Virus record (IMG/VR): IMGVR_UViG_2778260995_000017
Location: 1-7,524 of that record
DNA: 7,524 nt
Origin: a virus
Taxonomy: Duplodnaviria > Heunggongvirae > Uroviricota > Caudoviricetes
Strand: one strand, 5' to 3'
Shown: in pieces, positions 1-7,524 of the stretch
Numbering within the stretch: the stretch's first letter is position 1
Layout of the letters: every line of letters starts with the position of its first letter
Made by a program: the position numbers and the translations under genes
Notes under the pieces: model-generated
Database searches by the model: none
The model's input: only the letters and a program-made list of their open reading frames with translations
Told to the model about the DNA's origin: nothing

Positions 1-288
1 TTAACGGATCAACAGCCAGACCAGCAGACACGCCACCACCGGCACAGCAAAATCCATCAGGCTTGCCACATCCCAAGCACGCGGATCAAAACCGCCCCAC
101 CACGGCATATTCATTCGCTTGCCATGCCCGAACATTTCAATCCAGCGATATTCTGCCTGGGTATGTTCACGAGCGATGAAGAATGTACAACCAGCTATCG
201 CACCGTAAGCCCAGTTTCCGGTAAAAAGACCAACCAGTACCTGCGCAGCCACAGCACAAAGTGCATGAAGTAAGGGGCTTATATCCAT
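1..288 (-). CDS. Hypothetical small membrane protein (95 aa, two or three predicted transmembrane segments)
   Basis: ATG at 286-288 is preceded by a strong AGGAGG Shine-Dalgarno (minus-strand reading AAAGGAGGAGTAATG), 13 nt after the stop of the 233-aa gene. Hydrophobic N-terminal stretch (LLHALCAVAAQVLVGLFTGNWAYGAIAGCTFFIA) and C-terminal stretch (LMDFAVPVVACLLVWLLIR) flank a Trp/Arg-rich loop. Stop TAA at 1-3, exactly at the window edge. Confidence 0.55.
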   Translation of the reverse strand: MDISPLLHALCAVAAQVLVGLFTGNWAYGAIAGCTFFIAREHTQAEYRWIEMFGHGKRMNMPWWGGFDPRAWDVASLMDFAVPVVACLLVWLLIR

Positions 289-301
289 TACTCCTCCTTT
301 A

Positions 302-1003
302 TCAGATATCGTTTCGGGAAGTTGATAACAACTTTAATTCTGACTGAAGTTCATCAACTCTTTCTGTCAGTTTCTGGATATGGTGAATCAGTGGAACAAC
401 CAGACGTTCGTACATTACACCTTCGGCAACAAGGCCATTGCTGGAAATAGCTTCCGGTGCATCATCTTCGTTAGCTGGTCGCCAGTGTACAAACTGAGGG
501 GCAATTTCTCCTACTTCCTCGGCAATCAATCCGTAGAATCCCCAGTCACGCCTGTCATTTTCGCATTGCGACCTGTACCACACAGGGCGCATCTTGAAAA
601 TGAGATCGGCGTGCTCTGAATCTATCGTCTCTACTGAATGTTTATAGCGAATAGACGATGTTGACCGCAGTACAGACGAAATTGCGGGGTCAGGATTAAG
701 ATAAAGGTTTGCCGCCGCTGTAGTCGTGGCCAAATTCCATAAATAAAACGCTTCTCGACCTGTCAGCGGGTAAAAATCACCGCCATAACGACCGCTTTCC
801 AGATCGTTCGCTTCCACTTTGTTTTTCAGCTTATTATCAACTTCAGTTTTTGTGTATCTGGTGCTGATATCCTGCTTTGCACTGGTCATATCAGTCTGAA
901 GCGTTGATACTTTTCCGTTAATTGAGGAAATATCTTCCTTAGCTTTACTGACATCTCCCTTTAGCGTGGTAATGTCTCCCGGAATTACTGTCGATGTAGC
1001 CAT
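302..1003 (-). CDS. Coiled-coil protein (233 aa) with a C-terminal peptidase S74-like intramolecular chaperone domain (tail-fibre / endosialidase C-terminal chaperone type)
   Basis: ATG at 1001-1003 with a GAGGAAG ribosome-binding site in the 9-bp gap after the upstream stop. The N-terminal half is repeat-like and coiled-coil-like (DITTLKGDVSKAKEDISSINGKVSTLQTDMTSAKQDIS). The C-terminal half carries motifs I recognise from S74 chaperone domains: SSIRYK (the S-D-x-R-L-K-type site holding the nucleophilic Ser and the Lys), GLIAEEV, NGLVAEGVMYERLVVPLIHHIQKL, and a terminal coiled coil. Stop TGA at 302-304. Confidence 0.7.
   Translation of the reverse strand: MATSTVIPGDITTLKGDVSKAKEDISSINGKVSTLQTDMTSAKQDISTRYTKTEVDNKLKNKVEANDLESGRYGGDFYPLTGREAFYLWNLATTTAAANLYLNPDPAISSVLRSTSSIRYKHSVETIDSEHADLIFKMRPVWYRSQCENDRRDWGFYGLIAEEVGEIAPQFVHWRPANEDDAPEAISSNGLVAEGVMYERLVVPLIHHIQKLTERVDELQSELKLLSTSRNDI
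329..658 (-). other. Peptidase S74-like (intramolecular chaperone, auto-processing) domain within the 233-aa protein
   Basis: Spans roughly aa 116-225 of the 233-aa protein, from the putative nucleophilic Ser in SSIRYK to the C-terminal helix. Boundaries are approximate and based on motif positions only. Confidence 0.55.
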
Positions 1004-1012
1004 TTTTCTTCC

Positions 1013-1294
1013 TCACATCCAGCCACGAAGTTGATGCTCAACAGCAACCACGTATTCATCGAATAATGACAGTGTTTTCACATCATTAATGATGCGCACG
1101 TTTACAAAATATCCGTCTTCCTTAACACATACCGGTTCGCCATCTTCATTCAGTTCTCCGGTTTCTTTGTACACGTTACCTATCACGTCAATAAGAATAT
1201 CATCCTGCATCGACTCATCATTATAATAGCCAATACTTCCCATAAAGGCCGAAAAGTCGACCCTGTCGGCAAATTTGAGTGTTAAATCTTTCAT
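1013..1294 (-). CDS. Hypothetical small acidic protein (93 aa), translationally coupled to stf; possible fibre-specific assembly factor
   Basis: Its ATG (1292-1294) overlaps the stf stop (1291-1293) as ATGA. A G-rich Shine-Dalgarno (GGGGGAGAG) lies upstream inside the stf 3' end. No recognisable similarity to lambda Tfa. Stop TGA at 1013-1015. The coding call is supported by the coupling and the ribosome-binding site; the function is inference. Confidence 0.55.
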   Translation of the reverse strand: MKDLTLKFADRVDFSAFMGSIGYYNDESMQDDILIDVIGNVYKETGELNEDGEPVCVKEDGYFVNVRIINDVKTLSLFDEYVVAVEHQLRGWM

Positions 1295-3678
1295 TTAATA
1301 CTCTCCCCCATTTGCGCATCAGTTAATTCTTTATGCCATATTCTGAAATTCCTGATGTGTCCAAACAAATGCCTCGTTCCGGCAGTTGTCTGCCCTCCTA
1401 TTCTTATTGCCGTTGATTTTATAGCACCACCCCATGAAGTACTGACTTTTGATGAAATGTTACCATTCAGCGACGCTGCTAAGCCGCCATCTTTGTCTAT
1501 TTTAACTCCATATATTCCAGTGTTTACAACTTCATTGTTACCAGTTCCTCTTGACGGGGAACCAACGCTAACATATGCCGATCCAGGAAGAACTGTTGAT
1601 GTCGGCCCTCGGAATGCAAATATAAAAGACTCTTCAGCGAATGATGATGTTGCGTTCAGGTCAAAAATTCTTGGTGCTCCGTTTGGCACAATATCCCAAT
1701 TCTTATTAACTTCAATAAGAACACTGATAGGTTGTTTATAAATATTGTTTCTTGCGGGAATAGTTACCATATCACTTGCACGGGTCGCCGCCGTCGTTCC
1801 TGATATAATAAAAGATGATACACAAGCCCCATTCTCTACTTGTGGGGTAGCCAGATAAATATAGTCACCTGATACGGTTGCCCCGCCCTGCTTAGGTGAA
1901 TACTGTATCTGAGAGCCTATTTTTAACTCACCATCAATTGCCTGAATTGTTGCCTCAGCAAAAATCCATCCTGTAGTTTCATCCTTCCTGACTCGTGCCG
2001 TAATTCTACCGGAAGCACCACCTGTCATATTAATTTCAAGCGTTTGCGTATCAATATACGCATCACCAAGAAAAGTTGTTGCACTACCGTCATATTTATC
2101 AAATCGGATACGCAACCTTACCTGCAGTTCTGTTTTAAAACGACATGATGTTGTCACGTACTTATTATCGCCTGAGACATCAACTGACTTTGTTGCAGCA
2201 ATTGATGCCATATTAATGGCTGAGGTTTGCCCAATCAGAGAATCGTTGCAGACAAACTTTCCATAGGTAAAACCAAAACTATCCGTCCCGGTTTCGGGAA
2301 CATCCATATTTGACGATCGCCCCCAACTGGCAGGGTTTTCCGAATTGAGCATGTAGTTTGTTCTTTGCCCCTCAATAAGCAGACCATCACGTTCAAATCG
2401 TGGCTCGTCAATGGCAGCCTCTGTCAGCACACCAGATTTATTAATATAGGTTGCTTTCGACGCTCGTTTAAATTTAACAATCTTGTCGCCAGGCATCGTT
2501 ATTTCATCGTCACCAATAACAATTCTTTTATATGATGGCGAAAAGCCCGTAATCATATCCAGTGAATCGTTAAATGGTATCCACACATCAGGCAGCGGCT
2601 GTAAGACATATTTATACGGCTCTGCTGCCTGGCTTGCATACTCTCTGGCTGCGTCTTCACTTGCTTTTGCAGCCGTCTGGCTTGCTGCCGATGCTTTCGC
2701 CGAGTTCGCCGCCGCTGTTTCGCTCGCCTTTGCGTTGGTTTCACTGGTTTTTGCTGCTTTTTGACTGTTAGCTGATGCAGTGGCAGAAGCAGCCGCCGCG
2801 CTTGCAGAACCAGCTGCAGCACTCTCGCTTTCGGCTGCTGCATCCTGACTGCTTTTCGCCGCAGTTTCGCTGGCTTTTGCATTCGTTTCGCTGGTCTTCG
2901 CTGCCGTCTGACTGGACTTTGCGTTAGTTTCACTCGTCTTCGCGGCTTTCTGGCTGTTAGCCGCAGCAGTTGCTGATCCAGCTGCTGAAGTCGCAGAACC
3001 GGCTGCCGCGCTCTCGCTTTCGGCTGCTGCATCCTGACTGCTTTTCGCCGCAGTTTCACTGGCTTTGGCATTCGTTTCGCTGGTTTTCGCTGCCGTCTGG
3101 CTGGACTTTGCGTTGGTTTCGCTCGTCTTTGCGGCTGTCTCGCTGTTTTTCGCGTTGGTTTCTGATTTTTTGGCTGCTGTCGCGGAGTTTGCCGATGCAG
3201 TCTGCGAGGACGCTGCCGCCTGTGCGCTGTTAGCTGCATTCGTTTCTGAGGTTTTCGCCGCGTTCTTCGATGAAGCCGCTGCAGTTTCGGATTTCTTTGC
3301 CGCCGCTGCGCTCTGAGAGGCGGCTTCGGCGTTGCGTGCCGCTTCTTCCACCATTTCCTCAAAACGGCGCAATGCCTCCGGCATAACATCCTCTTCCGTC
3401 ATGGCACCGAGAAAATCATTCAGCGTACCTGGTCTGGAACCTTCATAGACGGTAATGGTCCCGGCATGTGAAGGCGGAAAACCTTCAACTAGCAGGGTGA
3501 CGCTGTACTGGCCATACTCAACATCCATGCTGTAACGCCCGGCTTCATCCGGATTTTCAGAGGCCACCGTGTTCACCAGTACCGTGGTGCTGTTACGCTT
3601 TGCCTTCAGTTGAATAGTGCAGTTCTGTATTGGTTTTCCCGCACCATCTTTCAGCACACCTGAAATCTGTACTGCCAT
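1291..3678 (-). CDS. stf: Side tail fibre protein (Stf-like): lambda-Stf-type N-terminal domain, Ala/Ser/Thr-rich repetitive shaft, and a distal domain of about 440 aa unlike lambda's
   Basis: ATG at 3676-3678 is preceded by GGAG (minus-strand reading TGGAGTGAGTATG). The ORF track starts two codons earlier at a GTG (3682-3684); I prefer the ATG because MAVQISGVLKDGAGKPIQNCTIQLKAKRNSTTV...RYSMDVEYGQYSV...GFPPSHAGTITVYE aligns with the lambda Stf N-terminus (MAVKISGVLKDG...) as I recall it. The C-terminal tail ...TRHLFGHIRNFRIWHKELTDAQM resembles the end of concanavalin A-like / laminin-G-type lectin domains, which is a tentative reading. Stop TGA at 1291-1293. Confidence 0.85.
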   Translation of the reverse strand: MAVQISGVLKDGAGKPIQNCTIQLKAKRNSTTVLVNTVASENPDEAGRYSMDVEYGQYSVTLLVEGFPPSHAGTITVYEGSRPGTLNDFLGAMTEEDVMPEALRRFEEMVEEAARNAEAASQSAAAAKKSETAAASSKNAAKTSETNAANSAQAAASSQTASANSATAAKKSETNAKNSETAAKTSETNAKSSQTAAKTSETNAKASETAAKSSQDAAAESESAAAGSATSAAGSATAAANSQKAAKTSETNAKSSQTAAKTSETNAKASETAAKSSQDAAAESESAAAGSASAAAASATASANSQKAAKTSETNAKASETAAANSAKASAASQTAAKASEDAAREYASQAAEPYKYVLQPLPDVWIPFNDSLDMITGFSPSYKRIVIGDDEITMPGDKIVKFKRASKATYINKSGVLTEAAIDEPRFERDGLLIEGQRTNYMLNSENPASWGRSSNMDVPETGTDSFGFTYGKFVCNDSLIGQTSAINMASIAATKSVDVSGDNKYVTTSCRFKTELQVRLRIRFDKYDGSATTFLGDAYIDTQTLEINMTGGASGRITARVRKDETTGWIFAEATIQAIDGELKIGSQIQYSPKQGGATVSGDYIYLATPQVENGACVSSFIISGTTAATRASDMVTIPARNNIYKQPISVLIEVNKNWDIVPNGAPRIFDLNATSSFAEESFIFAFRGPTSTVLPGSAYVSVGSPSRGTGNNEVVNTGIYGVKIDKDGGLAASLNGNISSKVSTSWGGAIKSTAIRIGGQTTAGTRHLFGHIRNFRIWHKELTDAQMGESIK
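2750..3140. repeat. Direct tandem duplication of a 189-bp unit (63 codons) inside stf, within a longer Ala/Ser/Thr-rich low-complexity stretch (about 2620-3340)
   Basis: Two near-identical adjacent DNA copies: for example CTCTCGCTTTCGGCTGCTGCATCCTGACTGC occurs at about 2822 and again at about 3011, and TTAGC...GCAG at 2768 and 2957. At protein level the unit KTSETNAKSSQTAAKTSETNAKASETAAKSSQDAAAESESAAAGSA...ANSQKAA occurs twice in frame. Flanking sequence holds degenerate partial copies. Confidence 0.85.
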
Positions 3679-3688
3679 ACTCACTCCA

Positions 3689-3717
3689 CAAATAAAAAAG
3701 GCGCCATTTCTGGCGCC
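3689..3717 (-). terminator. Rho-independent terminator-like hairpin plus T-tract immediately downstream of J
   Basis: Minus-strand reading GGCGCC-AGAAAT-GGCGCC followed by TTTTTTTATTTG. Plus-strand stem arms are 3700-3705 and 3712-3717, and the A-run is 3691-3699. Lies between the J stop (3739) and the stf ribosome-binding site. Confidence 0.6.
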
Positions 3718-3738
3718 CGTATTGGGGTTATAAATATT

Positions 3739-4200
3739 TCAACGGATACTGATACCGGAAGCAGCTTTTTTGGTCACAATTACCGTACAGTCTGTGATGT
3801 TACCTGCGCCCTGATTGCCTTTCTGGAAAATCTTAAACTCCAGAGTGACGCTACCACCACCACTCGGCATATCAATAACCGCACTGTAACTACCGGGAAT
3901 GGCTCCTTTAGTTTCTCTGGATGCGATTAATACGCCGTTTTTGCGAACTTCAAAACCATAACCCGTATATCGCGTACCTCCCGGGTTATTACCGCTCCCC
4001 GGATCGTCATACGCCATACCGTTAAAAATAATGGGCGGAATAATAATCTGGCGGTCAAAGTTATGATCATCGTAAATGGTGACTGTAACCGTCCCGTTTG
4101 GTGTTTCCGTGTTACCCCACGTACCAGCCTGTTTCGGGAATGATTTGGATACAGTTTTAACGAAGTCACCTCTGACCTGGTTCGCCTCCAGCATGCCCTT
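3739..4200 (-). other. Divergent C-terminal (putative receptor-binding) segment of J
   Basis: Roughly the C-terminal 150 codons of J. The protein sequence departs from the lambda-like body here, and the DNA becomes visibly more AT-rich than the GC-rich J body upstream (about 4300-7150). Boundary is approximate. Confidence 0.55.
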
Positions 4201-7152
4201 AATCGTACAGTTTTCATTTATCGTGACGTTGTTGAGCGTCCCGGAGTTCGCATTCACGTTACCGCTGATATCGGCATTTTTCGCCGTCAGCCGCCCGTCC
4301 GGTGTCAGGGAAAATACCGGCGGATTGCCGCCGCTGGTAATGGTGGGAGCCGTCAGATACTTCAGGAACACTTCGTTCATGAATATCTGGTTGCCCTGCG
4401 CCACAAACATCGGCGTTTCATTCCCGTTTGCCGGGTCAATAAACGCAATACGGTTAGCGGCAACCAGGAACTGGCTCAGTTTGCCTTCCTCCGTATCCTC
4501 CATGCTGAGGCCAAGCCCCGCGACATAATGCCTACCGTCTTCGGTCTGCTCAATTTTGACGCCCCACATGGCATTCCATTTATCGTTGGCGTCTTTCCAC
4601 TCTTTCGAAAACTGATCCAGTCTGCTGGCGTTATCCTCCGTCAGGTCGACTTTTTCCAGCAGTTCCTTGCCGAGATGGGATTCGGTTATCTGGCCTTTGA
4701 AAAAATCCAGGTAACCTTCCGCATCATCGCTCGCCCGACCGACGGCCTCCACGAATGCCGATTTGCCAACAGTATTCACACTGCGGATATAAAAATAATA
4801 ATCATGGCCCGGTTTGATATTGATACTGGCAGCTATCCAGTACAGCGCCGTGCCAAGATAGCGGGCTGTGGTTTCAACCTGCCTGATATCCGCAATCCGC
4901 TTTTCCGAGAACCAGAACTCAAACTGTACCGTCGGGTCATAAACGGCAAGATGCGGCGTGGCGGTGATCTGAAAATAGCCCGGCGTCAGCTCAATCCGCG
5001 ACGGTGCTGCCGGTGCGGCAATCCGGAACGATACCGATGCCGGATCGCCCTGCTGCCCCCAGGCATTTGCCGCCCGGACTGTCAGCCTGTAATTTCCCAG
5101 CGCCAGTTGCCTGAAGCGGTATGTGGTTTCCGTCGTCCGGGTCGTGCTGACCAGCCGCTCACTGCCGTCATCCGCTGCCACGGTCAGGCGAAGCATAAAG
5201 CTCACCCCCTTCACCACCTTCGGCGTATCCCAGCGCGCCAGCACCTGGTATTCCCCACTGTCTGCGGTGACTTCGGCAGTCAGGTGCTGCACCGCTGGCG
5301 GCGTGACACCATTCATCGTGCCGCTCTGGTCGCCGTCAAAGTGCGCCCCGTTATCCACAATGGCTTCTTTTTCCGGGACATGCTGCACGGCAGTGATGGC
5401 ATACGTGCCGCCATCGTTCTCACGGATACTCACACAACGGAACAGGCGCTGGCGCAGCGTCGGCAGCTTCAGCCCCCACACGCTGTACTCGGCAACGCCG
5501 TCAGGAACCCGGCTCACTTTCACCTTCACGCCGTCGGTGACGGACTGGACCTCCACGCTGACCGGATTCCCCTGTCCGTCAACCAGGCTTATCAGCGCGG
5601 TGCCGGAGGATGGCAGCGTGATTTCACGGTCGAGCGTCAGTGTCCGGGTCTGGCTGTTCACCGCCAGCACGCGCCCGCCGATGCTGATCCCCGCATAGTC
5701 ATCATCACAGATTTCAATGACATCACCCGGTACATGGCGAAGCCCTTCGGCCCCCACGCTGAAGTCCACGGTCTGCGTTTCCAGCAGTTCCGTTTTAATC
5801 AGCCACAGCCCGGCGCGGTGCGCCTGCCCCCGGCTGGTACAGCCAAAGGCATCCATCTTCGTGACGTTACGACCGTAACGGGCAATGGCCTGCGTATCTT
5901 CAACAAGCTCTGTCGCCGTCTCCCAGCCGTTGTTCGGGTCAATCCAGTTCACCTCAACGGCATTATGGCGGTCCTTCAGGGCGCTGAAGCTGTAGCGGAA
6001 CGGCGCGCCATCATCCGGCATCACCACATTACTGCGGTTATAGGTCCACACCTTATCTGATGGTCGGTCCTGCACGAACGTCAGCGTCTGCCCGTTCCAT
6101 ACCGGCATACAGCGCATCGCCGAGCAGAAATCACTGAGCACATCCCACGCCTTACGCTGCGTGGTCAGCCAGGCATTACAGGTGATGCGCGGCTCCGTGC
6201 CGCCAAAACCGTCCGGCACTGACTGGTCGCAGTACTGGCCGATGACATACAGCGCCCATTTATCCACATCCGCCGCACCAAGACGTTTCCCCATGCCGTA
6301 GCGCGGGTGGGTCAGCATATCCCACAGACACCAGGCCGGGTTGTTGCTGTATGCCGGCTTAAACGTTCCGTCCCAGATACCGCTGTATTGCCGCGTCTGC
6401 GGGTTATAGTTCGACGGCACCTGCAGAATGCGCCCGCGAAGATGATAATTACGGCTCACCTGCTGGCTGCCGAACTGCTCCGAGTCCACCTGCACGCCGA
6501 CCAGTGCCGTGTTCGGGTAGCACTGTTTCACATCGATGATTTCGGTGTATGACGACCAGAGCGTTTTGTTCTGCAGCTGGTCTGTGGTGCTGTCCGGCGT
6601 CATCCTGCGCATCCGGATATTAAACGGGCGCGGCGGCAGGCTACCCACCACCACCGAGGCCAGATACTGCGAGGTGGTTTTGCCCTTAATGGTGATGTCT
6701 TTTTCCGTCACCCAGCCACCGTTACGTTGTATCTGAACCAGCAGACGGACTTCCGACGGATTCCTGTCACCCTTTGAGGAGGTTTCCACCAGTGCCTGTA
6801 CACCGAAGGTAAAGCGCAGACGGTCGATGTTTGCAGACGTAATGGTGCGGGTGATCGGCGTGTCATATTTCACTTCCGTACCCAGCACCGTCTCGGAGCC
6901 GGAGGATTCAAACCCCTCCGGCGGTGTCTGCTCCTGCTCACCGGCACGGAACACCACCGTGACACCGGAGATGTTGGTATTCCCCTCAGTGTCCAGCACC
7001 GGCGTACTGTTCAGCAGCACGCTTTTTAATCCATCCACCGGACCTTCAACCGGCCCTTCGCTGATGGCATCGATCACACTCAGCAACTGCGTGGACTTCA
7101 GGTTATCCTTCGCTTCGCGCGGGGTATGCCCCTTACTGCTTCCTTTACCCAT
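3739..7152 (-). CDS. J: Host specificity protein J (central tail fibre / tip attachment protein, lambda gpJ family), 1137 aa, with a non-lambda C-terminal receptor-binding region
   Basis: ATG at 7150-7152 is preceded by GAGGA (minus-strand reading CGTGAGGAATG). The N-terminus [34 protein letters not shown]... and most of the body are near-identical to lambda gpJ as I recall it, and the length is close to lambda's. The last roughly 150 aa ([22 protein letters not shown]...[10 protein letters not shown]) do not match my recollection of the lambda LamB-binding C-terminus. Stop TGA at 3739-3741. Confidence 0.95.
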
Positions 7153-7174
7153 TCCTCACGCTCCATAAATGACA

Positions 7175-7194
7175 AAACCGCCCGCAGGCGGTTT
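7175..7194 (-). promoter_or_regulatory. Intergenic stem-loop between I and J (8-bp GC-rich stem AAACCGCC / GGCGGTTT, 4-nt loop)
   Basis: Perfect inverted repeat read directly from the sequence, in the 60-bp gap between the I stop (7213-7215) and the J start (7150-7152). The flanking T-runs are short and interrupted on both strands, so this is more likely an mRNA stability or attenuation element than an efficient terminator. Confidence 0.3.
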
Positions 7195-7212
7195 CACATA
7201 AAACATTTTGCA

Positions 7213-7524
7213 TCAGCGACCAATCACCACAACCTGACCACCGTCCCCTTCGTCTGCCGTGCTGATCTCCTGAGAAACCACGCGTGACCCCACGCGCATT
7301 TCCCCGTACAGAACAGGCAGAACATTGCCCTGGGCAACCATGTTATCCAGTGAGGAGAAATAGGTGTTCTGCTTACCGTTATCCGTTGTCTGTGTACGGG
7401 GAGTTCTGGCTTTCGGTGCCAGCATCTGCGCCACACCACCGAGCACTATACTGGCACCGAGAGAAAACAGGATGCCGGTCATACCACCGGCCCCAATGGC
7501 TGCCCCCCATGCTGCAAGGGTGGC
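7213..7524 (-). CDS. I: Tail assembly protein I (lambda gpI family), C-terminal portion only; the 5' end lies beyond the window edge
   Basis: The minus-strand frame is open from the window end (7524) to a stop at 7213-7215. Translation ...ATLAAWGAAIGAGGMTGILFSLGASIVLGGVAQMLAPKARTPRTQTTDNGKQNTYFSSLDNMVAQGNVLPVLYGEMRVGSRVVSQEISTADEGDGGQVVVIGR matches the C-terminus of phage lambda gpI as I recall it, with a few substitutions. The Met at 7480-7482 used by the ORF track is internal, not the true start. Sits directly upstream of J, as in lambda. Confidence 0.85.
   Translation of the reverse strand, partial: ATLAAWGAAIGAGGMTGILFSLGASIVLGGVAQMLAPKARTPRTQTTDNGKQNTYFSSLDNMVAQGNVLPVLYGEMRVGSRVVSQEISTADEGDGGQVVVIGR

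Follow-up and report, generated by a model that had tools for sequence, protein, structure and literature searches.

What stands in place of tfa behind the side tail fibre gene of this virus, and do the genes found there belong together? The window analysed here is the whole stretch of 7,524 nucleotides (nt) at positions 1 to 7,524 of the IMG/VR virus record IMGVR_UViG_2778260995_000017 (Caudoviricetes), and it contains an stf-like side tail fibre gene followed by three small genes, which we call g93, g233 and g95 after the lengths of their products in amino acids (aa). We find that g93 and g233 belong to a widespread two-piece tail-fibre module already known in many coliphages, and that g95 encodes an independent, cargo-like small membrane protein unrelated to this module. 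Taken as a whole, the locus probably encodes a side (lateral) tail fibre of two components, with an unrelated gene for a membrane protein behind it. In the list of open reading frames (ORFs), every long gene of the window is on the minus strand; the genes, and the domains discussed below, are as follows.

3739-7152, minus strand: J, an ORF of 1137 aa
1291-3684, minus strand: stf-like gene, an ORF of 797 aa
1294-2619, minus strand: distal domain of Stf (aa 356-797), lectin-like (ConA/LamG/galectin-type), G+C content (GC) 0.42
1013-1294, minus strand: g93, an ORF of 93 aa
302-1003, minus strand: g233, an ORF of 233 aa
908-1003, minus strand: N-terminal anchor of g233 (aa 1-32), MATSTVIPGDITTLKGDV..., motif M.T.T.IP.DI..LK
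305-658, minus strand: Peptidase_S74 chaperone domain of g233 (aa 116-233), PF13884
1-288, minus strand: g95, an ORF of 95 aa

A proximal and a probable distal fibre

The sequence-only reading of this locus had described three tightly packed small genes behind stf, and the sequence confirms it. The stop codon of stf and the start codon of g93 overlap in an ATGA (1291-1294); g93 and g233 are 9 nt apart (1004-1012), with GAGGAAG at 1008-1014 spanning the g93 stop; and g233 and g95 are 13 nt apart (289-301), with AAGGAGG at 293-299. It was also correct that genes other than Tfa hold the position of lambda tfa, as none of the three products had a Tfa-like or tail-assembly-chaperone match in Pfam (E up to 1) or NCBIfam. 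The protein properties it had listed were reproduced as well: g93 is acidic (isoelectric point 4.19; 19 D+E vs 8 K+R), g233 has an S74 domain and a weak coiled coil, and g95 is hydrophobic (grand average of hydropathy 0.58) with a three-helix model. All three are real genes. Each has hundreds of close relatives in Escherichia contigs, either unnamed or called 'tail fiber domain-containing protein', the name that the Prokaryotic Genome Annotation Pipeline gives to g233. Their ratios of non-synonymous to synonymous substitutions (dN/dS) against the lambdoid phage IdasGreatGrand, calculated from few substitutions, are 0.37 (g93), 0.39 (g233) and 0.10 (g95). Close copies of the window occur in the lambdoid phages IdasGreatGrand and PhiR49_1 (about 94% DNA identity across 95-98% of the query), in PhiR55_1 for two thirds of the query, and, across most of window positions 1-4000, in 59 complete E. 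coli genomes.

Three parts make up Stf: an N-terminal domain for tail attachment, a repeat shaft rich in Ala/Ser/Thr, and the lectin-like distal domain. PHROG 1419 ('tail protein') covers it from end to end. Residues 3-133 match Pfam PF08400 phage_tail_N (E 6.7e-67), and residues 3-96 match the 'Tail fiber protein' of PDB entry 9e7m (E 1e-48). The shaft is encoded by a 189-nt tandem repeat at 2728-3147 (2.2 copies, 86% match) that corresponds to a 63-aa Ala/Ser/Thr-rich unit; this repeat also generates spurious long ORFs in other frames, for example one of 278 aa at 2553-3389. In the distal domain, residues 436-636 match NCBIfam NF048003 GTA_spike_fiber ('head spike fiber', E 2.9e-13), and Pfam Laminin_G_3 is found in homologues. 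Among 89 loci this domain has 21 alleles below 90% identity, with conservation at aa 353-452 and 778-797 and variation in the centre, the pattern expected for a receptor-binding lectin-like module on a constant scaffold. By homology, Stf would sit on the tail tip through its N-terminal domain, and its distal lectin-like domain probably binds a surface glycan.

The g233 protein is probably a distal fibre, present here as a short one of several exchangeable alleles. It is composed of the N-terminal anchor, a coiled coil, a small tip (about 50 aa) and a C-terminal intramolecular chaperone. PF13884 Peptidase_S74 matches residues 116-172 from profile position 1, at 27.5 bits against a cut-off of 22, and as in chaperones of the K1F endosialidase and T5 pb1 type the above-cut-off domain comes with a Ser/Lys pair five residues apart. 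S116 and K121 are invariant across the homologue alignments, and their spacing is that of Ser911/Lys916 in endoNF. The surrounding STSSIRYK aligns with TSGIEYK of DT57C LtfA (PDB 8hqz_d) and with STSDIRMK of JakobBernoulli Gp36. Ser116 (codon 656-658) is the predicted site of self-cleavage, and a cut there would give a mature product of about 115 aa. Ahead of this site, residues 7-65 give weak coiled-coil-type matches, with trimeric coiled-coil-like matches to Lpp and P22 gp26, and the pre-cleavage part has a shaft motif in common with DT57C LtfA. By homology, g233 would trimerise via its C-terminal S74 chaperone and cut itself. JakobBernoulli Gp36, an O16-binding fibre, was considered as an occupant of the same slot and rejected; it is a single 741-aa fibre that has the chaperone domain alone in common with g233.

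The anchor is the sole part of g233 common to all alleles found in the slot behind g93. M1, T3, T5, I7, P8, D10, I11, L14 and K15 are invariant in lambdoid, T1-like, 9g-like and T5-like proteins that are otherwise divergent. The first 32 residues recur in the 346-aa 'tail fiber protein' of the lambdoid phage Tritos and in the 351-aa 'endosialidase chaperone' that Nonagvirus ESCO3 encodes; the central regions are unrelated. The motif also starts Drexlerviridae proteins of 231 aa and IrisVonRoten Gp24, which has 574 aa. In 86 of 90 loci, the g93 homologue is followed by an ORF with the anchor motif, usually after 9 nt. Complete ORFs of this kind are 233/234 aa long at 25 loci and 345/346 aa long at 40, and span 189-574 aa overall. 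In addition, positions 1147-1384 of PHROG 3299 (1385 positions) match g233 residues 1-227, which hints that a g233-type unit is fused to a long fibre in some phages; other tail-fibre PHROGs match too.

Longer alleles in the same slot, together with the fact that g233 covers just the last 240 positions of PHROG 3299, could be read as signs of decay, with g233 a non-functional leftover from a longer gene for a distal fibre (for instance the 346-aa allele or a fibre of 1,385 aa of the PHROG 3299 type). We regard this as highly improbable. Full-length homologues of the short form (about 206-231 aa, 56-60% identity) are present in about 43 records of virulent Drexlerviridae and in several lambdoid phages, the catalytic Ser/Lys pair, the start codon and the ribosome-binding site are all intact, and the g233 dN/dS given above, few as the substitutions are, is below 1.

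The gene order and spacing recur in IrisVonRoten (Bas32, Tequintavirus), in which a fibre gene is followed by a 92-aa ORF overlapping the fibre stop and, 9 nt on, by a distal fibre gene. Its Gp22 is 47% identical to Stf over 748 aa (E 0), including the 'galectin-like' distal domain, Gp23 is a homologue of g93 (39% identity), and Gp24, a T-shaped distal fibre, has the N-terminal anchor motif of g233 and a C-terminal chaperone domain. In AlphaFold-Multimer models of the BASEL phages (PMC11990801), the distal Gp24, with its C-terminal intramolecular chaperone, attaches to the proximal Gp22, whose C-terminus carries a 'galectin-like' domain; the 92-aa Gp23 is not discussed. According to an earlier BASEL paper, siphoviruses may build their lateral fibres from one polypeptide or from two or more proteins. 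IrisVonRoten differs from our locus in that it is a virulent T5-like siphovirus with another N-terminal attachment domain on its fibre and no g95, and in that Gp24 has 574 aa with two receptor-binding domains, whereas g233 offers no more than a coiled coil and a tip of some 50 aa. By homology to Gp22 and Gp24, the conserved N-terminus of the mature g233 of about 115 aa (anchor, coiled coil and small T5-like tip) would dock on the conserved end of the Stf/g93 junction, and the docked protein may act as a second, exchangeable receptor-binding tip.

Two further systems have parts of this arrangement. In the Drexlerviridae PeterMerian (bas05_0031-0029) and KarlJaspers (bas06_0037-0035), the gene behind the lateral fibre gene is a g93 homologue (45-51% identity), and next comes a full-length g233 homologue of 225-231 aa (56-59% identity); these phages are virulent and T1-like, their locus is among replication genes rather than after J, and they have no g95. 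In the T5-like DT57C, which has branched L-shaped fibres (LtfA/LtfB; PMC4728585, PMC10713586), docking of a distal fibre on a proximal one is experimentally supported. This two-protein fibre is comparable to ours, and g233 aligns with the shaft motif and the cleavage region of LtfA. LtfA and LtfB both carry S74 self-cleaving chaperone domains, and LtfA differs from Stf in ending in such a domain instead of a lectin-like one; no g93-type gene is reported.

g93 and the conserved junction

The g93 protein goes specifically with the lectin-like distal domain. It corresponds to PHROG 1361, and homologues are present in 181 annotated phage genome records, from lambdoid phages (including phage 21), Drexlerviridae, Dhillonvirus, Queuovirinae and T5-like Markadamsvirinae, and in partial form in rV5-like myoviruses. 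The family is nevertheless small in an exhaustive search of 1.84 billion representative proteins, with 49 relatives, many of them fragmentary. In every annotated row among the listed matches, the match lies where a gene annotated as lateral or side tail fibre (or as tail fibre or tail protein) ends, and in every case examined (the 181 records, 80 IMG/VR loci and the contigs L008 and L009) a fibre gene with a homologous distal domain precedes the g93 homologue. In the siphovirus contig L008, J is followed by a fibre of 622 aa that matches Laminin_G_3 weakly and then by a 94-aa g93 homologue, with nothing related downstream; in the P2-like contig L009, the fibre ahead of the g93 homologue is 34% identical to Stf over 440 aa. 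Neither contig has any g233-like or g95-like gene. The ATGA overlap between stf and g93 is kept in 88 of 92 loci. In Lambda_4C10 (L004 6738-9154), an insertion sequence with three 'mobile element protein' genes splits the normally overlapping pair.

Phage 21 (Jouyvirus, CPT_21_22 to CPT_21_24) gives the same picture from within the lambdoids. Its Stf gene is followed by homologues of g93 (53% identity) and g95 (97%), a terminator separates J from stf, tfa is absent, and the interval between g93 and g95 differs from ours in having no distal-fibre gene. Many 'Lambda_ev' and mEp460-type phages have the same arrangement as phage 21. The suggestion that our locus might be an undescribed system is not borne out, given that phage 21 carries stf-g93-g95 and that the BASEL papers describe proximal and distal lateral fibres.

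These phages also bear on what g233 does. It could instead be a free-standing chaperone that acts in trans on the Stf trimer through its S74 domain, with g93 as co-chaperone, so that the pair would replace Tfa. Its homologues are indeed labelled 'putative lateral tail fiber chaperone' in PeterMerian and KarlJaspers and 'chaperone of endosialidase' in SECphi27 and Jahat_MG145, the part before the S74 domain is merely about 115 aa, and stf, g93 and g233 are tightly coupled. S74 chaperone domains, however, work in cis, on their own polypeptide. Moreover, the slot and motif of g233 also hold proteins of 346-574 aa with clear receptor-binding domains, such as IrisVonRoten Gp24, and the part of g233 before the S74 domain is itself conserved, aa 1-116 being about 50% identical across Drexlerviridae. 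Finally, Stf and g93 are maintained without a g233-type gene in phage 21, L008 and L009, so the folding of Stf does not depend on g233. We therefore consider a trans-acting chaperone unlikely and retain the distal fibre as the better description of g233.

The region around g93 is the constant part of this module. Over 460 nt, at positions 939-1398 only, the virulent Nonagvirus ESCO3 is 90% identical in DNA to the window, and the flanks diverge; the matching block comprises the last 100 or so nt of stf, the whole of g93 and the first 65 nt of g233. In E. coli prophages, the distal alleles of Stf, which are 42-98% identical to the window, assort independently of the 233-aa and 346-aa distal-fibre alleles, while g93 stays about 90% identical. 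Because this block is conserved between divergent flanks and the alleles assort independently around a steady g93, the junction formed by the 3' end of stf, g93 and the anchor behaves as a constant, exchanged piece between two exchangeable receptor-binding parts.

The function of g93 itself can be approached by analogy. Like the chaperone partners in lambda Stf-Tfa, Mu S-U and P2 H-G, g93 is placed behind the fibre gene and translationally coupled to it, and its presence co-varies with a particular fibre C-terminal domain; it may be considered Tfa-like in position and in its tie to the fibre C-terminal domain, as a functional analogy only. It differs from these chaperones in being half their size and in having no sequence or fold similarity to them. 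As a Tfa-type chaperone (lambda Tfa, Mu U, P2 G; Pfam Caudo_TAP) it was rejected, with neither a profile match nor a fold match. Its structure model is a small alpha/beta fold (predicted score in the local distance difference test, pLDDT, 85.9), for which a fold search returned no informative structural neighbour and no clue to function. A profile search against PDB sequences gave a weak, implausible match to a telomerase-associated protein (E 0.005), which we took as chance. Through the ATGA overlap, g93 would be made in step with Stf, and it may act on, or stay bound to, the conserved base of the distal domain. Since g93 persists without any distal fibre, we slightly favour a factor that assembles or stabilises the lectin-like domain over a structural adaptor. 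Proteomics on virions of mar004NP2, a T5-like phage (PMC6563131, supplements), detected the large fibre protein alone, with LtfB missing, and are uninformative on the presence of a g93-type protein in particles. The paper on gut editing with lambda makes no mention of fibre accessory genes.

g95 and the surroundings of the fibre operon

The last gene belongs to a different family with a different history. g95 matches PHROG 1443 ('unknown function', E 1e-57), and its AlphaFold2 model (pLDDT 96) has three long helices at residues 4-23, 26-53 and 74-94. Sixty sequences of the family have 18 invariant columns, centred on the loop motif REhtQAEYRW...G.R..P..GGF. Members come from gamma-, beta- and alpha-proteobacteria and from Desulfovibrio; the taxa represented are Escherichia, Leclercia, Pantoea, Aeromonas, Halomonas, Comamonas, Acidovorax, Sphingomonadales, Devosia and Desulfovibrio. 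Searches of PDB, PADLOC, Pfam and NCBIfam gave no relative of g95, PADLOC gave no match for g93 or g233 either, and g95 has no sequence match to described superinfection-exclusion or defence families. Its fold search returned generic helical bundles and designed proteins only and is uninformative. The homologues of g95 are found in the following contexts.

Comamonas: after a giant J-like gene
Salmonella, 160-kb phage-like contig: with tailspike genes on either side
Leclercia: after a Tail_spike_N protein gene
Desulfovibrio: after a pectate-lyase+S74 spike gene
Chelativorans: after a Laminin_G_3 fibre gene
P22-like Gally (L164 3289-3500) and 611R6 (L166 1905-3788): between the tailspike (or OafA acetylase) gene and integrase
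Halomonas phiHAP-1: between a tail-fibre assembly gene and the sheath gene
Aeromonas and Sphingomonadales: beside housekeeping genes

Among the unrelated receptor-binding genes that precede g95 homologues are a P22-like tailspike, Tail_spike_N, the pectate-lyase+S74 spike, a LamG fibre and the Halomonas tail-fibre assembly gene. The gap between tailspike and integrase is the usual site of lysogenic conversion genes in P22-like phages. In Gally, the g95 homologue is preceded by a terminator-like hairpin and a promoter-like site, both recognised by consensus matches only; in 611R6, it is just past an OafA-type O-acetylase gene and a 38-aa 'tail fiber protein' fragment. Cargo genes beside receptor-binding genes are familiar from P2 (fun(Z), between G and FI), P22 (gtrABC, in the gap from tailspike to int) and HK97 (gp15); the g95 homologues of Gally, 611R6 and phiHAP-1 are in such positions, although g95 has no sequence relationship to any of these genes. 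Lone chromosomal homologues with 45-58% identity are present in Aeromonas rivipollensis (L006 6001-6309) and in Sphingomonadales (L126, L137, L139, L157), with Pirin, DAHP synthase, PNPase and DNA ligase genes as neighbours, and the family therefore has cellular members and is not phage-only. In phage 21 (L013 4677-8126) and in Lambda_4C10 (L004 2445-5894), the sitABCD iron/manganese transporter operon is directly downstream of the g95 homologue on the opposite strand; since it adjoins g95 there, the fibre operon evidently ends in a zone where cargo is inserted.

The proposal that the three genes form one co-evolved cassette, for fibre maturation or as a moron, acquired en bloc with the distal domain of Stf, can now be weighed. 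The genes are tightly packed, each with its own ribosome-binding site, the order g93, anchor-motif ORF, g95 is near-constant in close E. coli prophage relatives, and among loci with several kb of downstream sequence g95 is missing at just two (L022, L043). Beyond close relatives, however, the genes separate in every combination: g93 occurs without g233 or g95 in L008 and L009, g93 and g95 without g233 in phage 21, g93 and a g233-type gene without g95 in Drexlerviridae, T5-like and 9g-like phages, and g95 without the other two after unrelated tailspikes or in plain chromosomal settings. The independent assortment of Stf distal alleles and g233 alleles and the different base composition of g95 argue in the same direction. 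A single cassette is accordingly very unlikely: g93, g233 and g95 are three separate evolutionary units. Of the fibre and moron functions that the sequence-only reading had offered, the former fits the first two genes and the latter the last, which is cargo-like; what fails is the idea of one co-adapted unit, because the three occur independently of each other, an outcome that this reading had itself named as a refutation. A survey of the neighbourhoods of homologues, which it had proposed, showed that the trio does not always travel together and that g93 always follows the lectin-like distal domain. The distribution of g95 is independent of neighbouring structural genes, as in a moron, and this applies to g95 alone.

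GC is 0.57 in J, 0.42 in the distal domain of stf (aa 356-797), 0.40 in g93, 0.45 in g233 and 0.52 in g95. The statement that the whole block is richer in AT than J thus stands for distal stf, g93 and g233, and is to be qualified in that the tract starts inside stf and does not take in g95 (0.52). On the coding strand of window positions 1-1300 we found no promoter-like or terminator-like site, the edge of the window being the g95 stop; with no promoter-like site inside it, the cassette does not have the look of a self-contained moron. One further feature lies upstream of the fibre operon, within the 54 nt that separate J from stf.

3699-3718, minus strand: strong terminator-like hairpin GGGCGCCAGAAATGGCGCC followed by a T-run, with a stem of 8 pairs, 6 of them G-C

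The phage 21 record has an annotated terminator at the same junction. Because of this terminator-like hairpin, expression of the fibre operon may need antiterminated late transcription.

Several observations concern the neighbourhood of J. The window has no lom/ail gene between J and stf (3685-3738); a gene for a Lom/Ail outer-membrane protein is present at this spot in IdasGreatGrand and in the best E. coli match, FG92-1. At the 3' end of J (3739-4400), GC falls from about 0.60 to 0.46-0.50 in the final 200 or so codons, and this drop suggests that the C-terminal receptor-binding region of J is mosaic and distinct from the remainder of the gene. In the high-GC part of J there is an antisense ORF of 510 aa (4528-6060, plus strand), most likely a compositional artefact.

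A number of points weigh against a two-component fibre followed by unrelated cargo. The docking of g233 on Stf is taken by homology from a published prediction rather than from experiment, the mature part of g233 would be very short, and the names under which its homologues are annotated speak of chaperones. The presence of g93 without a distal fibre in phage 21, L008 and L009 weakens an adaptor role, and its fold is uninformative on function. g95 has no promoter-like site of its own in the window, is closely coupled to g233 and, by its GC, does not look foreign. For g95, an envelope-directed cargo function such as superinfection exclusion is the most economical guess, a speculative one. As an inner-membrane protein whose gene has repeatedly landed beside receptor-binding genes, it might act on the envelope, for instance by excluding superinfecting phages or by masking a receptor.

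Implications for lambdoid tail fibres

A more far-reaching interpretation, which we put forward tentatively and as a whole, would make g93 an unrecognised class of small fibre partners and g95 a captured, proteobacteria-wide envelope protein. Here g93 might be a stand-in for Tfa on lateral fibres of the lectin type in six or more phage lineages, and together with the conserved C-terminal end of the fibre it might form a universal socket for interchangeable, chaperone-tipped distal fibres. The g95 protein, with its cellular homologues, might be a membrane protein repeatedly captured beside receptor-binding genes that alters the envelope or blocks superinfection. We hold this combination to be doubtful.

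The questions on the roles of g93 and g95 leave the current understanding of tail fibres standing. They concern, on the one hand, a protein present in 181 sequenced phages yet unstudied and, on the other, a very conserved membrane protein. For many E. coli prophages, the 'tfa slot' is probably the place of a second, swappable receptor-binding protein. In host-range prediction and in work with engineered lambda-type particles, stf, g93 and the anchor-motif gene are best treated as one module, and the conserved block formed by the 3' end of stf, g93 and the anchor offers a natural place to splice when either the lectin domain or the distal tip is to be exchanged.

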